Below are positions 7,398 through 56,630 of a stretch of DNA of 64,000 nt, piece by piece. The DNA lies in the IMG/VR virus record IMGVR_UViG_3300044858_003398; one strand, given 5' to 3'. Below the pieces are notes generated by a model, which was not told the DNA's origin, did not search any database, and saw only the letters and a list, made by a program, of their open reading frames with translations. The DNA comes from a virus. The position numbers and the translations under genes are program-made. Every line of letters begins with the position of its first letter. Position 1 is the stretch's first letter.

Positions 7398-7431
7398 AAG
7401 ATCTAATCGATTTTGAAATAAGGCGAAGCCT

Positions 7432-7905
7432 ATGATCGGGATTTACTCCAAAGACATGACTAGGATTATTGGCTATACTATCAAGCGATATAGGCTCAAT
7501 TTTCCTGATGATATGCTTAGGGAAGATCTTGAGCAGGAAGTAGCCATAGGCCTATTAAAAGTCCCTCATGAGATTACCGCTGGAGACATTATTAGGCACG
7601 TCCTATGGGCAAGAGTACGAATCTGGAAAGACGCTATATCCCGACAACACAACCCGACTGAAGGAAAAGGCTTTTTGCCGTCAGAAGAGTCCATTTACGC
7701 CAAAGAGTCGGTAAAAAAGATAGTGGCAATTGAGAAGCTCACAGAACAAGAAAAAAACTTCCTGAAATGTAGGGCCGAAGGCCTTGACTCTCGGGAGATT
7801 ATGGATAAAATAGGCCTGAAGACGCGACAAAGACTTGAACAGATCAAGAGGGTCGCCTTCAACAAAGTTCGAGAACACTGTGCTGACGCAAAATACTGGA
7901 GTTGA
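7432..7905 (+). CDS. Sigma-70/ECF-like sigma factor or region-4 HTH protein
   Basis: Region-2-like EDLEQEVAIGLLK; region-4-like LTEQEK...GLDSREIMDKIGL.TRQRLEQIKRVAFNKVR. Confidence 0.65.
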   Translation: MIGIYSKDMTRIIGYTIKRYRLNFPDDMLREDLEQEVAIGLLKVPHEITAGDIIRHVLWARVRIWKDAISRQHNPTEGKGFLPSEESIYAKESVKKIVAIEKLTEQEKNFLKCRAEGLDSREIMDKIGLKTRQRLEQIKRVAFNKVREHCADAKYWS

Positions 7906-10846: not shown

Positions 10847-11030
10847 TAAGCCTAACGGCAAAGAATGGGCGTATAAGATCTTAGCGGATCTTTTACAACC
10901 TATAATAAGGGGGCTTTGCCCCACCAGATCTAAGGCTTGTGTCGAGTGCGAGAGGAATTCCTAACAGGGCATTGTGTCCCACTGGACTAATCTTGGTAGA
11001 CATAAGGGTAAGCTAGGTCTGGCTTTATAT

Positions 11031-11108
11031 TCCGGAGGTAGATAGAATTGGCCACCTATCGAGTCGTCACAGACGACTCTAGCTCAATTGGCCGTAAAGA
11101 GTACCGGA
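11031..11108 (+). ncRNA. Circularly permuted tRNA-like RNA module
   Basis: Closing stem TCCGG/CCGGA; T-like arm GATAG/CTATC; loop-closed acceptor GAGTCGTC-ACA-GACGACTC; TA linker; D-arm GCTC-AATTGGCCGTAAA-GAGT. Confidence 0.65.
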
Positions 11109-11115
11109 TCTGAAA

Positions 11116-11260
11116 CGATCGGCGGCGTTGACAGCGAAACGCACACGAGGCGAAGTACAAGCTGAGTGAATACCACAAGACTTACCGGGCTGGAAAACGA
11201 TGGCAGTCCCTGACGGAGCAATCCGCCAATAAGATACAGGTGCAATTCCTGTCCGATCGA
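11116..11260 (+). ncRNA. tRNA-like RNA with the anticodon arm replaced by a ~90 nt insert
   Basis: Acceptor CGATCGG/CCGATCG-A; D-like arm GCGT..ACGC; T-arm ACAGG-TGCAATT-CCTGT. Confidence 0.6.
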
Positions 11261-11502
11261 TCTGATTTGGGACGAATGCTAGTATAGTCTACAATTTTTA
11301 ACTGTCCCGACTATACAACTTTTTGTCGTCCCATTAATATGCCGATGGCTTTATAGCATCGGAACGATGCAGGCAGGTTCAATTCCTGCTCGTTGACCGA
11401 GATCTGGTGAAAGAGGTGGCTCGAAGCCATCACTGGTGAAAACCTTAGGGAGTGCCCCGCCTTGACGGGGAGGTCCGAGTGATGGCCGTTAGCCATCTAT
11501 AT

Positions 11503-11574
11503 CGTTACTGGGAGGTAAGTATCTTGGACGGGCTCATAACCCGTTTTAAATCGGGGCGGTTCCGATAGTAACCA
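11503..11574 (+). tRNA. Divergent initiator-type tRNA-Met (CAU)
   Basis: Anticodon stem ACGGG/CCCGT (three G-C pairs) with loop CTCATAA; acceptor GTTACT/AGTAAC with unpaired position 1; non-canonical T-loop GGCGGTT. Confidence 0.7.
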
Positions 11575-11907
11575 CTTGGCTTCGCAAGAAGCCTAGAACA
11601 CTAGGCGTTAGCTGCATACTCCTATGGGGGGTGTTATTCCGAACAAGTATGGATTAGCTGTCCAGAAAAACTAGGAATGGCCACAAAGGGCAAATAGGTA
11701 GGGCTCTGAGGCTTGCTGGACGAAACGACCTGTTCCTAGTGTTCTTTTTTCGAAACTGCTTCGTAAGAAGCGCAGGTAACGTATAAGGGGGCCAAAGACC
11801 GTGGTTCTCGTGAAATAAACACCCAGAGGGAAACCTAGGCTGGGTGATAAAAACACGACGTAGCTTTTGGATGGCTTACGCCATCTCTGTACTTCTTGCG
11901 AAGCCTT

Positions 11908-11979
11908 TGACCAATAGCATAATCGGCAGTGTAACTGACTTTGACTCAGTTGGCGGTAGTTCGAATCTACCTTGGTCAA
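11908..11979 (+). tRNA. tRNA-Gln (UUG)
   Basis: Acceptor TGACCAA/TTGGTCA; ACTGA-CTTTGAC-TCAGT; T-arm GGTAG-TTCGAAT-CTACC. Confidence 0.9.
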
Positions 11980-12201
11980 TGTCAAGCAAGCGTAAGCTTG
12001 CGTACTCTGTGGGGCGAAGGTACGTCGCCCATTACTAGTATAAACCAAGTATGTCTTGAGACAAACTAGTAATCGTACACAGAGGCCCCTCGGGGCATTA
12101 GATCGTTGGTTCCACAGGTAGGTGAGTCATTGGAACATCTTGTCCGGCACTTCGTGGAGTCTCTCTGGCCGGAGAATAAATAGAGACCTAGGCCTACCAT
12201 C

Positions 12202-12273
12202 GGTTCTATAGTGTATCGGTTCGCACGACAGCCTGTCATGCTGTTAGGATGAGTTCAACTCTCATTGGAATCG
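12202..12273 (+). tRNA. tRNA-Asp (GUC)
   Basis: Acceptor GGTTCTA/TGGAATC-G; ACAGC-CTGTCAT-GCTGT; T-arm ATGAG-TTCAACT-CTCAT. Confidence 0.88.
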
Positions 12274-12464
12274 CTTAATAAGGCAAAGTCCATGAAAATC
12301 TATTTCGTAGTAACCCGTGACACTTCTTTTACTGGTCCAGACTCCGTCATCTGCGTAACCGCCGACAAGACAAAAGCCCTTGAGTACATGCTCCCTTGTC
12401 GATATATCAAAGAGTTCGATGTAGAAACTGACCAATTTGCCGACAAATCGAACGATTTGAGGCC

Positions 12465-12492
12465 TTGACTTCCCAAAAACGCCTGATAAAAT
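12465..12492 (+). promoter_or_regulatory. Sigma70-type promoter upstream of ORF 12517 and the tmRNA
   Basis: TTGACT, 16 nt spacer, TAAAAT. Confidence 0.6.
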
Positions 12493-12757
12493 GCGATCTG
12501 ACGATCCAAAACACAAATGACAAGGGGCGAAGTCATGAGCAGAGAAGATTTCGAGGATACAATCCTCTTTGATAAAATGGGTGAGTACATTGTGAATGAG
12601 ACTCTCGTCTCAGTCCAGTACTTCAGGGATGATCTGAAGGTCGGCTACTACAATGCAATCTCGGGGAATTCGGAAACCTATTCTGGGGTTGAGGTGGCCG
12701 ATCATATCCTAAGGAATCTCACCTTCAGTGAGACTCCTTATTAGGGCGAAGCCAAAC

Positions 12758-13030
12758 GGGCCGTAATTGATTTGAATGGCAATTAAGGCAATAACTGCGG
12801 GTAGGAGTTGGTCAACGGCTCCTTAAAAATTGACCGAACAATAACTGCAAAAACCTTTGCTGTAGCTGCATAAGCTGGAGGGTCTCATGCCCCTCCTTAC
12901 AAAAGCATGAGAGCAACGATACGCAACGTCAGCTTGGCTGACCACACGAACCGGGGGCTTTAGCCCCATACACCCGTAGACGTTATTGATGAGATTGTTC
13001 CATGACGGCATGTCGAAGTGCCACGGTCCA
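12758..13030 (+). ncRNA. ssrA: tmRNA; tag reading frame AKTFAVAA*
   Basis: Acceptor GGGCCGT/ACGGTCC-A with G3-U70; pk1-like GGAGTTGGTCAACGGCTCC..TTGACC; ATAACT then resume codon GCA AAA ACC TTT GCT GTA GCT GCA TAA (12847-12873). Confidence 0.92.
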
Positions 13031-13220
13031 TGAGCCCAATAGGGCTCTGATTTTCAGGCGTGACAGAATAGGCGAGCAAAACCCTTAGACAAGGTGTCGC
13101 AGACTTATTCCGGTGGGGTGTTTTCTTTAGCAGATTCTTGGGACCACGGGCGTTCACTCAAAAGAATCGCCGGTCTGAGTAATCCTACGTCTAATAGGAG
13201 AGCTATCACAGACCGTATCC

Positions 13221-13305
13221 TCCGGATTTTCCCATCGCTAAACTGTAAATTTAGTGCCATTAATATGATGGGTGGCGGCAAGTAGTTCGATTCTTCAATC
13301 CGGAA
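13221..13305 (+). ncRNA. Aberrant tRNA-Tyr-like RNA (GUA loop) lacking a D-arm
   Basis: Terminal stem TCCGGATT/AATCCGGA; GCTAAA-CTGTAAA-TTTAGT; long variable arm; TTCGATT loop on a weak T-stem. Confidence 0.5.
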
Positions 13306-13352
13306 TTTGGTGCCTTCGGCACCATAGACTCTCTTAAAATACCGAAGATATC

Positions 13353-13592
13353 ATGATCCAAACAACTCCAGCCAGAAACCTAGATGGAACCACCAAGGTG
13401 GATGGGACCGTAGTCATCTGTCTCAAGGATGGTCGGGTCGAAGAGGTAGTCTCAGACCTACAGCTTGATGTACAGGTGTTCAGTGTGGATTACGACTATG
13501 ATGGAGGGCGAGGATATGAGGGAAGACCGTCCCGGCCCCTCTGGGAATTTTTGAGGAAACTCATACATCTCCACTCGACAAACGAGAGATGA
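13353..13592 (+). CDS. Hypothetical protein
   Basis: ORF track; isolated ORF within the RNA island. Confidence 0.5.
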   Translation: MIQTTPARNLDGTTKVDGTVVICLKDGRVEEVVSDLQLDVQVFSVDYDYDGGRGYEGRPSRPLWEFLRKLIHLHSTNER

Positions 13593-13881
13593 TCAAGTAA
13601 ACTTGATAGACCACTAACAAATCCTGTGTCCCTGCGTGTGAAGGACTCCTCATTTTCACACAGAAGCTCGGATAAGTTCAGCAGAGACTAAGGATAAGAA
13701 ACTTGTTAGTGGCCTTTTAGATCTGGCAAACGCTTATGAAATAATAAGAGAATCGATTTGGGTCAAGCTTTCCTTCGGGGATTCTCCAGATGCCTAGGCT
13801 TCCCTTCTAGGTCTTTCAAAAGAATAAATCTTATAGCCACTACGGACACTTTCCGAGATTAAAGTGTCTAAGATCTTTTAT

Positions 13882-13954
13882 GGCTCCGTATCCCAATGCA
13901 GAGGAACTCGGCCTAGACCCGAGTAACGTGTCGGCTCGTTCCCGACCGGAGCTA
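13882..13954 (+). tRNA. tRNA with UAG anticodon (Leu-type), short variable region, C33
   Basis: Acceptor GGCTCCG/CGGAGCT-A; CTCGG-CCTAGAC-CCGAG; T-arm GTCGG-CTCGTTC-CCGAC. Confidence 0.75.
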
Positions 13955-14178
13955 CTTCACTACAGAAGCCGATAGGCCTATGCGTGAAGCCCTGATATAC
14001 GGCGATGTTGCAACATCTGTATATCCTTTTACTAGGTTGTGTCAATCTAGTCGGTCTTGCCTAACCGTGCTAGGCACTCAGATTACTTGAGTATGCAGTA
14101 GTCCGCTAAATTCGCCAGCGGTAGTTGGCAAAGGCAGGCTGAACAAGGCTGTCCGGTTGGCTGCAAGGCCAACACTTT

Positions 14179-14250
14179 GGCCGATTAGTTTATTTGGTAA
14201 AACATCTCCCTTGTAACGAGAAAAGCTCAGATCGTAGCTGAGATTGGCCT
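14179..14250 (+). tRNA. tRNA-Thr (UGU), divergent
   Basis: Acceptor GGCCGAT/ATTGGCC; TCTCC-CTTGTAA-CGAGA with a C:C mismatch; T-arm CTCAG-ATCGTAG-CTGAG. Confidence 0.75.
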
Positions 14251-14944: not shown

Positions 14945-15628
14945 ATGGACGAAATCAAAATTTTGATAGACTGTACATTTGGGCAAAACTATGGGAAAAA
15001 TCCCATAAAAACCTCAAGGGCGGTCTATCGAATCTTATGTCTGCCAAATCATAAAGTTTATGTTGGCTCTACAAACAACGCTATAGTTAGATTTCGCACC
15101 CACAAGGCGAGATTATCTAATGGTGAATTCCATTCTGTAGCGATGCAGTCTGATTTCAATTTCTATGGGAAAGAAAACTTTTCATTTGGAATCATAGAAG
15201 ATGATATCTTGATAGGAGTCGATAACATATATGCTAGGGAGGCATATTACATACGGCTTTATGATTCAACTAATCCAGATTGCGGATACAATCTTGCCCA
15301 CGTTAACGAATCCGGATCGTGCAAGTTCTCTGAAGATACAAAAAAGAAAATGAGTAAATCTGCCGAGGGCAGGATAAACTCAAGCGAGACTAGGGCAAAG
15401 ATCAAACTAGCTAACACTGGTAGAACTCCAGCCAAGCATAGCATAGAAGCCGCAGTAATCTCAAGATCAAAAAGGCATACCTTCGTTTCCCCAGATGGGG
15501 AAGTGGTGGAGATCTTCAATATTAGTAAGTTTTGTAGAGAGCACAACTTACAACAATCGTGCATGTCAGAAGTATCAAACGGTAATAGGAATTTTCACAA
15601 AGGTTGGAGGAACTATAATGGGCGTTAA
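14945..15628 (+). mobile_element. GIY-YIG homing endonuclease with NUMOD3 repeats
   Basis: AVYRI....HKVYVGST....RF..H; E..YI..Y.S....GYN; NUMOD3-like SEDTKKKMS and SSETRAKIK. Confidence 0.88.
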
Positions 15629-16358
15629 GTTGAATCAGATCATTGCTATTGCAAACGGAAAGAAAGCAGCAGCCACTGCCGCCATCACGGAAATTTACAA
15701 GGTCTTGCAGAAACCGGACCTGTTCGGGGGTTTCACTCGGGTTTACCAGCCCAATGACGACGAGGGCGAGAAGCTCCCCTCGGAATCTAAGATTGTTCAG
15801 CAGACGGTCGCTGCAAACCTACGAGCCGCCCAAGAGCAACTGGTTGAACTCTTCGACACTATTGCTACTCAAGAGGTGGCAAACTGTGAGGCTAAAGCCG
15901 ATATCGTGGTCGGTGGGACGACCTTGGCCACCCAAGTTCCCGTCTCGCTCATGCTTTTCCTTGAGAAGCAAGTAGACAACATGAAAGCACTGATTTCCAA
16001 GCTGCCCGTGCTCAGCACGGACACTAACTGGAAGGTTTCTGAGAGCGATCCAAACATCCACGTTACGGATACAGTGACGACCACACGAACCAAGAAGGTG
16101 CCCAAGGCGTTTGTCAAGGCAGCAGCCACTGACAAGCATCCTGCCCAAGTTGATGTCTTTACTGAAGACATTATCGTAGGAAACTGGAACAAGGTGGAAA
16201 TGTCTTCAGCGGTGCGAATCTCAACACGAGACGCGATGCTCAAAAAGGTCGACTCTCTCCGAGAGGCGATCAAGATGGCTCGCGAAGAAGCGAACTCCAT
16301 CGAAGTAAAGAAAATTGAGATTGGTAAGAAGATTACCGATTTCGTGTTTGGCGGCTAA
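15618..16358 (+). CDS. Uncharacterised helical/coiled-coil protein (MGVKLNQIIAI...) linked to a downstream ncRNA
   Basis: GGAGG at 15606-15610 before ATG 15618; 246 aa; long amphipathic helices at both ends around a beta-rich middle. Confidence 0.85.
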   Translation: MGVKLNQIIAIANGKKAAATAAITEIYKVLQKPDLFGGFTRVYQPNDDEGEKLPSESKIVQQTVAANLRAAQEQLVELFDTIATQEVANCEAKADIVVGGTTLATQVPVSLMLFLEKQVDNMKALISKLPVLSTDTNWKVSESDPNIHVTDTVTTTRTKKVPKAFVKAAATDKHPAQVDVFTEDIIVGNWNKVEMSSAVRISTRDAMLKKVDSLREAIKMAREEANSIEVKKIEIGKKITDFVFGG

Positions 16359-16369
16359 TCGCCCCAAAC

Positions 16370-16800
16370 GAACCATATTGAGGACCTCTGGTCCCTCTGG
16401 AAAGTAGAGTAGCCTTAGTATAAGATTCAGTTTCATTCGTATTGATGGCAAAGTGTTGGTTCAAATCCAACCCCCTGCATTTTCAACCACGCAGGGGTAG
16501 CCCAACGGTAGAGGCACCATCAACGAAGTAAGCTTTAGCTTATCTCTACAGGCTAAGTACCGATAGTAGAGTTGTAAATCCAGTTCTTATCGACAAACAT
16601 TTGTTTATACGGGTTCAACTCCCGTGGTCGAAGCCATGTTCAGATGCGTCTGAGCTAGGCTTCGACCTAGCATAACGGTTAATGCAGCAGACATAAGAAT
16701 GATCGATAGGATTAAACGAAGATAGTTACAACAATACTAGTAATCCGAAAGGATATAACACTACCGCCCCGGTCTATGTGCTATTAGGCCGGGGCATTTT
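16370..16800 (+). ncRNA. Large structured RNA with two permuted tRNA-like (YrlA-like) modules
   Basis: Module 1 at 16442-16523 and module 2 at about 16583-16700; each has a T-arm (TTCAAAT or TTCAACT loop), a closed acceptor stem and a D-arm (AACGGT loop) on a long imperfect stem. Confidence 0.8.
16766..16800 (+). terminator. Intrinsic terminator
   Basis: GCCCCGGTCTA...TAGGCCGGGGC followed by ATTTT. Confidence 0.8.
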
Positions 16801-18304: not shown

Positions 18305-18814
18305 ATGACCTTCCTAGACCTATTTGATTCTCCCTATTCCCCAGCTAACGACGACAAAGTCACTCGTCTAGCTCGTGAGCTTCCCAAGCTGCCAAAGTCC
18401 ATTATCATTGTGGACGTTAGTGGTAGCATGGAATTGCCTAACGGCAATTATTCAAGGTTGCAAATTGCGGCAGCTTTAGCTGCCGAGATCAAGTTGCGGG
18501 CTGACGCACCCCTATATGCCAGTTCAGGCCTTGACTCTGACCAATCCCACATCACCGAGCAACTCAACTATGATGGGTTTAATCTATGGTTGGCCCTAAG
18601 AAGAGCCTGTTATGATTTTGGTGGTGGTGGGATCTTCCTAGAAAAAGCTGTTAAGCATGTCAGCCACTACCATGTCAAGCCTGAAAGGCTTTACATCCTT
18701 ACAGATGAGCAGAACTCCTACCTGCCAACTTTCGGCAAAAGCGTCTTCAATGTTGATGTCGGTTGTCAGTCCTTCGAAGAAACTCGCAGAATGCTAGATT
18801 TGGAGGTCGCATGA
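18305..18814 (+). CDS. Stand-alone VWA domain resembling the C-terminal domain of TROVE/Ro60-like proteins
   Basis: MIDAS motif IIIVDVSGSM, AAALAA helix, GGGIF and LYILTDEQ; no TROVE HEAT-repeat region. Confidence 0.7.
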   Translation: MTFLDLFDSPYSPANDDKVTRLARELPKLPKSIIIVDVSGSMELPNGNYSRLQIAAALAAEIKLRADAPLYASSGLDSDQSHITEQLNYDGFNLWLALRRACYDFGGGGIFLEKAVKHVSHYHVKPERLYILTDEQNSYLPTFGKSVFNVDVGCQSFEETRRMLDLEVA

Positions 18815-55600: not shown

Positions 55601-56630
55601 TTTCACGTTCGGCTACAACACTACCAGTTATGGGTATCACGGATCTTATACGCTGAAGCATTTGCTAAAGCTAGGATGGGACGTTCGCCATATTCCGATT
55701 GGTCGTAATGACATAGACCCCCGAATGCCCCAGCCAAAATACCCATTTCATCTAAAGGCCCCTTCTCTTCGGTTATGGCATCCGAACGATATGGCTGGAT
55801 TCACTGGTGAGCCAAAGATAGCTTTCACAGTCTTCGAGCTAGAAGACCTATCGGATGAGGAGGTCCACAATCTATCCTATCCAGACAAGGTGGTCGTTCC
55901 GACCCAATGGGCCGCTGATGTGTGCGATAGGCAGGGGATTAAGGCCTCCGTAGTCCCTTTGGGGTACGACCCATCTATCTTTTTACCGAGTCCTCCTGAA
56001 CCGGGCACCCACACGATCTTTGGCAATTTCGGCAAATGGGAGATCAGAAAGGGCCATGATGTCCTGATCAAGGCCTTTAATGCCGCATTTGAGAAGGATG
56101 ATGAAGTCACCCTAGTCATGATGCCGACCAATGGTTTCCTCAATCCAGAACAGACCAGAGCTTGGCAACGTATGTACCTAGAATCAAAGCTTGGGGACAA
56201 GATTCAGATAGTACCCCGCGTGAATACCCATCAAGACGTATTTAATATTATGAAGCAGGTCGATTGTGCCGTTTTCCCAGCAAGAGCAGAAGGCTGGAAT
56301 ATGGAGGCTCTCGAAATGATGGGGTGTGGCAAGGAAGTCATCATCACTAATTGTACCGGACACACTGGGTTTGTCAATGAGTCTTGTAAGCTTGTTGAAA
56401 TGAAAAATGAGTTTGAAGTAGCCTATGACGGTGTCTTTTTCGGCGGATTCTCAAAATGGAGAAAATTCACACAAGATAGTTTCGATCAACTAGTTGAGCA
56501 TATGCGAAATGTCCATAGGGGCCGATCAGACCTAAAACTAAACCAGTCTGCGGTGGATCAGGCCAATAAATTTTCTTGGGAGCTTTCCACCAATGTTTTG
56601 GCAAAAGAAATCGAAAAAGCCTGTAGATAA
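55584..56630 (+). CDS. Glycosyltransferase, GT4 family
   Basis: VVPLG.D, GKWEIRKGHDVLI.AF, FPARAEGWNM.ALE.M.CGK.VI.T. Confidence 0.9.
   Translation: MIMNLNFTFGYNTTSYGYHGSYTLKHLLKLGWDVRHIPIGRNDIDPRMPQPKYPFHLKAPSLRLWHPNDMAGFTGEPKIAFTVFELEDLSDEEVHNLSYPDKVVVPTQWAADVCDRQGIKASVVPLGYDPSIFLPSPPEPGTHTIFGNFGKWEIRKGHDVLIKAFNAAFEKDDEVTLVMMPTNGFLNPEQTRAWQRMYLESKLGDKIQIVPRVNTHQDVFNIMKQVDCAVFPARAEGWNMEALEMMGCGKEVIITNCTGHTGFVNESCKLVEMKNEFEVAYDGVFFGGFSKWRKFTQDSFDQLVEHMRNVHRGRSDLKLNQSAVDQANKFSWELSTNVLAKEIEKACR

Follow-up and report, generated by a model that had tools for sequence, protein, structure and literature searches.

A conserved tRNA-like element of permuted part order and matching loop motifs from among the tRNA genes of an uncultured freshwater phage

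The stretch of DNA analysed here (the window, 64,000 nucleotides from an uncultured freshwater phage) contains a non-coding island of about 3.4 kb (10847-14250), which comprises genes for tRNA-Gln, tRNA-Asp and tRNA-Thr, a tmRNA-like gene and an element of 78 bases (11031-11108, + strand) lying inside this tRNA gene cluster. All related loci share the leader of the island with 88-90% identity. The 12-mer GCGTATAAGATC (10869-10880, + strand), which heads the island, is taken as a candidate phage-specific promoter or leader motif; a second copy occurs at 55642-55653 on the minus strand, and the 123.6-kb record of the phage holds two. The tmRNA-like gene (12758-13033) scores 38.6 bits against an Rfam gathering score of 47 bits, and its counterparts in three related contigs (L005, L007 and L020) pass with 55-62 bits. 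Also within the island is a Y-RNA-like hairpin carrying GACGAAUG (11264-11335, + strand), referred to below as the handle hairpin, which matches the Rfam family YrlB with 28.6 bits (E 0.0067), below the gathering score.

The element reads as a permuted cloverleaf that is open at the anticodon stem and closed at the acceptor end, and its helices and loops were read from the sequence at 11031-11108 exactly as in a preliminary description of this DNA. All of its parts lie on the + strand. The two ends are held by a closing stem of 5 bp, in which 11031-11035, occupying the position of the 3' strand of the anticodon stem, pairs with 11104-11108. A 5-nt linker (11036-11040) takes the place of the variable loop of a tRNA and resembles the variable region of the Rfam tRNA consensus. 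The arm in T position (11041-11060) has a 5-bp stem and a 10-nt loop that contains UGGCCA and is not a T loop. It directly abuts a central capped hairpin in acceptor position (11061-11079), with 8 bp and an ACA loop. The remaining part (11080-11103) consists of a UA linker, a D-like arm (11082-11102) with a 4-bp stem and a 13-nt loop containing UGGCCG, and a single A. The motif AATTGGCC, which the preliminary description had placed in both loops, is present at 11046 and 11086; the probability that loops of this size (10 and 13 nt) have an 8-mer in common is about 3 in 10,000 (18 placements over 4^8). In the two loops, the hexamers at 11049-11054 (loop 1) and 11089-11094 (loop 2) are proposed to be kissing partners.

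Taken alone, the fold could be due to chance. The cloverleaf has a predicted energy of -23.9 kcal/mol and the minimum-energy fold one of -24.3 kcal/mol, the latter differing only in that a nested helix between the loop hexamers replaces both arms. Compared with dinucleotide shuffles the z-score is -2.15, and 4 of 200 shuffles fold equally well. A descriptor for a four-way junction of the same size finds 0-2 matches per shuffled genome strand and three in the real 123.6-kb genome, two of which lack tRNA features. The element is judged to be real because of its conservation in relatives, and not because of its fold.

Copies of the element were sought in the contigs of 25 metagenomic relatives of the upstream 86-aa gene and by one exact-pattern scan of the JGI metagenomes. 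This homology search in related phages, which the preliminary description had named as a check, yielded seven further distinct copies in metagenomic phage contigs (L005/L006, L007, L020, L021, L022, L027 and L034), making eight with that of the window; in L026 the copy is cut short by a run of N that follows the first arm. With a covariance model made from six of the copies all eight score 80-106 bits, and everything else in 37 loci, the phage's own record and a 140-kb relative scores 17 bits or less. Exact and degenerate patterns from both arms have no match in IMG/VR or GTDB genomes, and blastn of the island against cultured phages returns only a 43-nt T-arm/acceptor piece in Pseudomonas phage Touem01. 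The known copies are confined to one lineage of uncultured freshwater phages. The element belongs to none of the families searched: ARAGORN and Rfam at the gathering score have no match on it, Rfam at E values up to 10 assigns no family to 11031-11108, and at E values up to 1 none is assigned to the seven homologous loci.

Of the 59 columns that lie outside the central hairpin, 51 are invariant in the eight copies, as against 70-89% identity in the neighbouring 86-aa protein and 38-95% in other neighbouring proteins, and the immediate flanks are diverged and in several loci unalignable. Four of the five pairs of the closing stem are invariant, the outer pair being U-A in six homologues, U-G in one and unpaired in one. 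The 5-nt linker is constant in length and has two variable positions, each changed in a single homologue. The stem in T position is invariant save for its closing G-C, which is G-U in three of the eight; in its loop positions 2 and 3 vary and UGGCCAC is constant. The stretch 11080-11103 is likewise invariant save for the first pair (G-U in three, G-C in five), and all nine pairs of the two arms are preserved in all eight sequences. The central hairpin has other sequences among the homologues, with stems of 8, 5, 5, 5, 4, 4, 3 and 5 bp and loops of 3-11 nt; it is paired in all of them and shows the sole compensatory changes seen. The total length of the copies is 70, 72, 78 or 82 nt, a variation that leaves no room for a coding reading or for a fixed spacing between the two 8-mers.

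Each of the three non-central helices shows one wobble change, G-C/G-U twice and U-A/U-G once. Since these pairs would become A-C mismatches on the other strand, and the + strand also carries every tRNA and tmRNA gene, the RNA strand is taken to be +; in all loci the element lies on the strand of the tRNA and tmRNA genes. Covariation is weak in these eight closely related sequences, 58 of 500 column shuffles matching the observed score. Retention nearly letter for letter in related phages suggests that the element is probably a genuine small RNA mimicking the tRNA core. The homologues being close, the invariance could stem in part from recent lateral spread of the element as a cassette.

The permuted-cloverleaf reading holds, and the junction and the D arm fit the Rfam tRNA consensus. 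The linkers at the junction have the lengths found in tRNA: the T-position arm abuts the capped hairpin (0 nt), two nucleotides precede the D arm, one follows it and five stand in the variable position. By comparison with the same consensus U8, A9, G10, A14, G18, G19, A21, A26 and the 5-nt variable loop are all present, and in the eight copies these core residues are invariant except for the partner of G10, which is U or C. The D stem and variable loop are, we take it, almost those of yeast tRNA-Phe.

The surroundings of the element differ from phage to phage. In L005 and L007 it lies 6-7 nt upstream of the handle hairpin. In the window the two are kept apart by a 152-nt tRNA-like shell that has the 7-nt direct repeat GATCTGA on either side, and in L034 by another module, which in L007 is found upstream of the element. 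In L021, L022 and L027 a minihelix of T arm and acceptor follows the element and no handle hairpin is nearby. Very close relatives (L011, L016/17, L025 and L035) have the island and lack the element; the 86-aa protein of L021, which carries the element, differs from that of L016/L017, which do not, by three residues. The handle hairpin in turn occurs without the element in L010, L011, L014, L016/17 and L025. No protein gene in the loci examined, candidate partners included, tracks the presence of the element. With neighbours that differ between phages and close relatives that lack it, the element forms a unit of its own, an autonomous cassette for which the handle hairpin is not required.

Other units of these islands behave in comparable ways. 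A structured module of about 95 nt lies upstream of the element in L007 (8000-8066) and downstream of it in L034 (3185-3275), and since it switches sides the small-RNA units of the islands are shuffled as cassettes with short A/U-rich linkers between them. The 152-nt insertion of the window (11107-11265) occurs in this phage only and has a 7-bp acceptor and a T-like arm; no copy of it was found in any locus examined. The GATCTGA repeats at its borders (11107-11113 and 11259-11265) resemble a target duplication or a recombination scar. The handle hairpin is commoner than the element, being present in L005 (7789-7850), L007 (8155-8225), L010, L011, L014, L016/17, L025 and L034, and its upper stem shows compensatory changes between L016 and the window. 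In L010 an HNH endonuclease gene (7413-7868, minus strand) lies antisense in the RNA island between leader and handle hairpin. The minihelix of T arm and acceptor strand in the window (11365-11411) is 90.7% identical to a piece of Pseudomonas phage Touem01 (L004, 3560-4070). The matching region of Touem01, about 900 nt in length, is unannotated and non-coding and contains three T-arm-like motifs; ARAGORN calls no tRNA there.

Among known RNAs the closest parallel in architecture is offered by the YrlA Y RNAs, whose parts follow in the order V, T, AS, D (Chen et al. 2014, PMC4201824). The T and D stems of YrlA are extremely conserved and its AS, AC and variable parts differ in size (Wang et al. 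2018, 10.1101/312249), and its elbow is formed by a canonical T loop that contacts two guanines of the D loop (10.1101/312249). The element has the same succession of variable region, T-position arm, capped acceptor-like hairpin and D arm within a stem that holds the RNA ends. Like the YrlA RNAs of Salmonella, Mycobacterium and mycobacteriophages it has conserved D and T arms and a capped hairpin of varying size, sits among tRNA genes and is phage-borne. YrlA also has a long basal stem whose 5' strand carries GNCGAAN0-1G, the region that binds Ro60/Rsr, whereas the closing stem of the element has 5 bp and its flanks neither pair nor are conserved. The only place where GNCGAAN0-1G is found is the hairpin at 11264-11335, which is separate from the element and missing from the neighbourhood of several of its copies; in occurring with or without a neighbouring handle the element again departs from YrlA. 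The T loop differs as well, being replaced by a 10-nt loop that nearly copies the motif of the D loop, so that the canonical elbow cannot form; the D loop keeps its GG. YrlA is a ligand of Ro60/Rsr with tRNA modifications, and a Ro60/TROVE gene lies on its strand at a distance of no more than a few kb. Handle hairpins gave sub-threshold YrlB matches twice (28.6 and 27.3 bits), and no Ro60 gene was found. Searches for TROVE and DUF2828 have no match in the 123.6-kb record, which is 79% complete, nor does TROVE in the 140-kb relative, which is also incomplete. The suggestion of a Y-RNA-like mimic holds for the order of parts and for the combination of fixed arms with a variable capped hairpin, and fails where membership is concerned. 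The element is not a YrlA member; it lacks the GNCGAA handle stem and a T loop, Rfam has no match for it and the record contains no Ro60 gene.

A second parallel lies in the same phage. Two mimics that follow a DUF7873 gene (16442-16523 and about 16590-16690) share with the element the permuted topology and the succession of UA, D arm and A. They differ in having canonical 7-nt T loops and capped stems of 7-10 bp, and the covariance model of the element has no match on them; the DUF7873 gene is missing from the examined loci of relatives that carry the element. To call the element a third module, as had been done at the outset, is thus apt for topology and not for T loop, sequence or distribution. 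The tRNA cluster of phage T4 encodes two small stable RNAs of unknown function, species 1 and 2 (rnaC/rnaD). These resemble the element in being structured non-tRNA RNAs that are encoded within an operon of phage tRNA genes and presumably released from its common precursor; there is no relationship in sequence or structure, and the T4 RNAs are not permuted cloverleaves.

The hexamers of the two loops, UGGCCA and UGGCCG, could form 6 bp, one of them U-G, with a duplex energy of -9.7 kcal/mol, and a helix between the loops is topologically compatible with the cloverleaf. Both hexamers are invariant in the eight homologues, and covariation therefore neither supports nor refutes their pairing. In loop 1 the only two variable positions lie just 5' of the hexamer, so conservation there is not of the shared 8-mer as a whole, a pattern that would fit pairing slightly better than double recognition of one motif. 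A putative kissing contact is compatible with all eight sequences. RNAfold draws the loop pairing as a nested helix in six of the eight homologues, with a fold that is as stable as the cloverleaf or more stable by up to about 3 kcal/mol. A search of the RNA island for targets complementary to the loop motif found nothing beyond chance: pairing with the tRNA-Thr gene at 14179 is possible for either loop over the first eight bases of that gene, but by estimate about one such match is expected in the island by chance.

Several other explanations may be considered. If the GGCC helix were nested in the molecule rather than a contact between loops, the element would be a three-tier stem of closing stem, GGCC helix and central hairpin with large internal loops, its arms unformed and no tRNA mimicked. 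We regard this as unlikely, if the least unlikely of the alternatives. The nested fold is the RNAfold minimum-energy structure of the six homologues mentioned, by 0.4-3.1 kcal/mol, but it would make a coincidence of the tRNA-like linkers of 0, 2, 1 and 5 nt and of the D-arm residues, and against it stand the nine arm pairs kept in eight sequences and the two arm changes that are wobble-compatible. Nor is it exclusive, as the same helix can form as a loop-loop contact on the cloverleaf. The palindromic loops might instead act between molecules, in an RNA dimer or by pairing with another RNA. Both GGCC and UGGCCA are self-complementary, and pairing of loop 1 with loop 1' or with loop 2' of a second molecule would be as good as that within one; intramolecular partners, however, have a much higher local concentration, and the island contains no conserved target of the GGCCAA type beyond chance. 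We hold such a role to be improbable, and yet more improbable that the element is a site at the level of DNA, in which two direct AATTGGCC repeats and the inverted repeats would serve binding, recombination or homing. A DNA site would be in keeping with strong conservation of sequence, little covariation and the presence of several palindromic hexamers. It is at odds with a repeat spacing that varies (32, 34, 40 and 44 bp), with a central hairpin that changes length yet stays self-complementary, with G-U pairs that make sense on one strand only and with a motif that is itself variable in repeat 1.

The element could also be a functionless relic derived from tRNA, a passenger cassette spread by recombination among modular RNA islands, which we consider unlikely as well, ranking it behind the nested fold and ahead of pairing between molecules. 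Its presence in some very close relatives (L021) and absence from others (L016/L017, with a 3-residue protein difference), its differing neighbours and the homing endonuclease genes within these islands are all in line with such an origin. A relic should decay evenly, however. In this element 51 of the 59 columns beyond the central hairpin stayed fixed although proteins of these phages have 38-95% identity, and the hairpin itself was rebuilt repeatedly. Least credible of all, and very improbable indeed, is a circularly permuted tRNA gene, whose transcript a ligase such as the phage Rnl2 would join into a circle and which, opened again within the capped loop, would yield a functional tRNA. Genes of this kind occur in Cyanidioschyzon merolae and in some other algae and archaea. 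They encode complete tRNAs with anticodon loop, T loop and 7-bp acceptor, which are processed via a circular intermediate. As in C. merolae, the 3' half of the element comes ahead of the 5' half and a short intervening sequence links the acceptor strands, but the anticodon loop, T loop and 7-bp acceptor are neither present nor conserved. Only this topology and an Rnl2-type ligase gene 6.6 kb upstream speak for the idea, the presence of the gene being the only link; RNA ligase genes are found in relatives both with and without the element. In place of a 7-bp acceptor with discriminator and processable junction there is a capped stem of 3-8 bp in the eight copies. The two flanks that would rebuild an anticodon loop differ between homologues, and the 10-nt loop in T position lacks the U-U-C-R-A pattern. 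ARAGORN recognises no tRNA in the un-permuted form even with its threshold lowered to 80%, and calls one in the un-permuted control module at 16442-16523. The permuted precursor for Rnl2 put forward in the preliminary description is accordingly given up. Circularly permuted tRNA genes are mentioned in PMC4238349.

The reading we prefer, and to which we give about an even chance, is that the element is a self-contained structured RNA derived from tRNA, with an elbow closed by GGCC pairing, and that by analogy it would work like the tRNA-like module of YrlA. The + strand would be transcribed as one unit of a polycistronic tRNA, tmRNA and small-RNA island, and the element would be cut from the island transcript at short A/U-rich linkers. 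The four-way junction and the class I tRNA core are retained, with D arm, U8-A9, A26 and a 5-nt variable loop. An anticodon loop is absent, the anticodon stem holding the two RNA ends, and in place of the free acceptor end stands a short hairpin, free in length and sequence, that would merely close the junction. A T loop is absent as well, its place being taken by the near copy of the D-loop motif, and since the two loops carry this motif Watson-Crick GGCC pairing could replace the contact of D and T loops and hold the molecule in an L-shape. The two arms and their joined loops would then present a fixed, sequence-specific surface that may bind or titrate a protein recognising the tRNA core, much as has been proposed for the effector module of YrlA, though with no Ro60 handle.

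Phage tRNA clusters have been known since 2014 to contain permuted tRNA mimics closed at the acceptor end, and the mimicry of tRNA by Y RNAs was recognised in the same year. The element differs from the earlier mimics in a predicted elbow of another kind, in the lack of a handle and in the lack of linkage to a Ro60-like or DUF7873 gene. More tentatively, and with doubt prevailing, the element may stand for a new class of tRNA-derived RNA whose elbow is a Watson-Crick kissing complex formed by two copies of one palindromic motif. Such an RNA would move among phage tRNA islands as an autonomous cassette and, lacking a Ro60 handle, might for example act on a factor of host or phage that recognises the tRNA core, either as its decoy or as its scaffold. 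In the published view the conserved D and T arms of Y RNAs are read at the elbow by some effector. If expressed, the element would be a natural minimal version of such a mimic, usable to find what binds its surface, and would indicate that a tRNA core can be held by a simple loop-loop helix; if unexpressed, it would be only a well-preserved tRNA relic. The element also adds to the view that a phage tRNA cluster is a mosaic whose small-RNA cassettes are interchangeable.

Two protein genes elsewhere in the window may be mentioned. The DUF7873 gene and, after it, a permuted tRNA mimic with canonical T loop, capped acceptor and UA plus D arm fall within 15495-16800. The same arrangement is found in two distant phage contigs, L002 (10940-11060) and L003 (10900-11000), with proteins 44% and 28% identical; the DUF7873 neighbours found in IMG/VR are too distant to have the island in common. 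Comparison of sequences gives DUF7873 no relative of solved structure, its only resemblances in the ESM Atlas are to small helical proteins of unknown function, with TM scores below 0.5, and a search of the literature on DUF7873 and on an anti-defence role of phage Ro60 found nothing usable. Further downstream, 18305-18814 encodes a vWA-like protein of 169 aa, preceded by two ORFs that belong to other families or to none. The protein matches positions 283-394 of the 476-position PHROG 850, annotated as an RNA-binding protein, and from this partial match it could be the vWA part of a larger RNA-binding protein.
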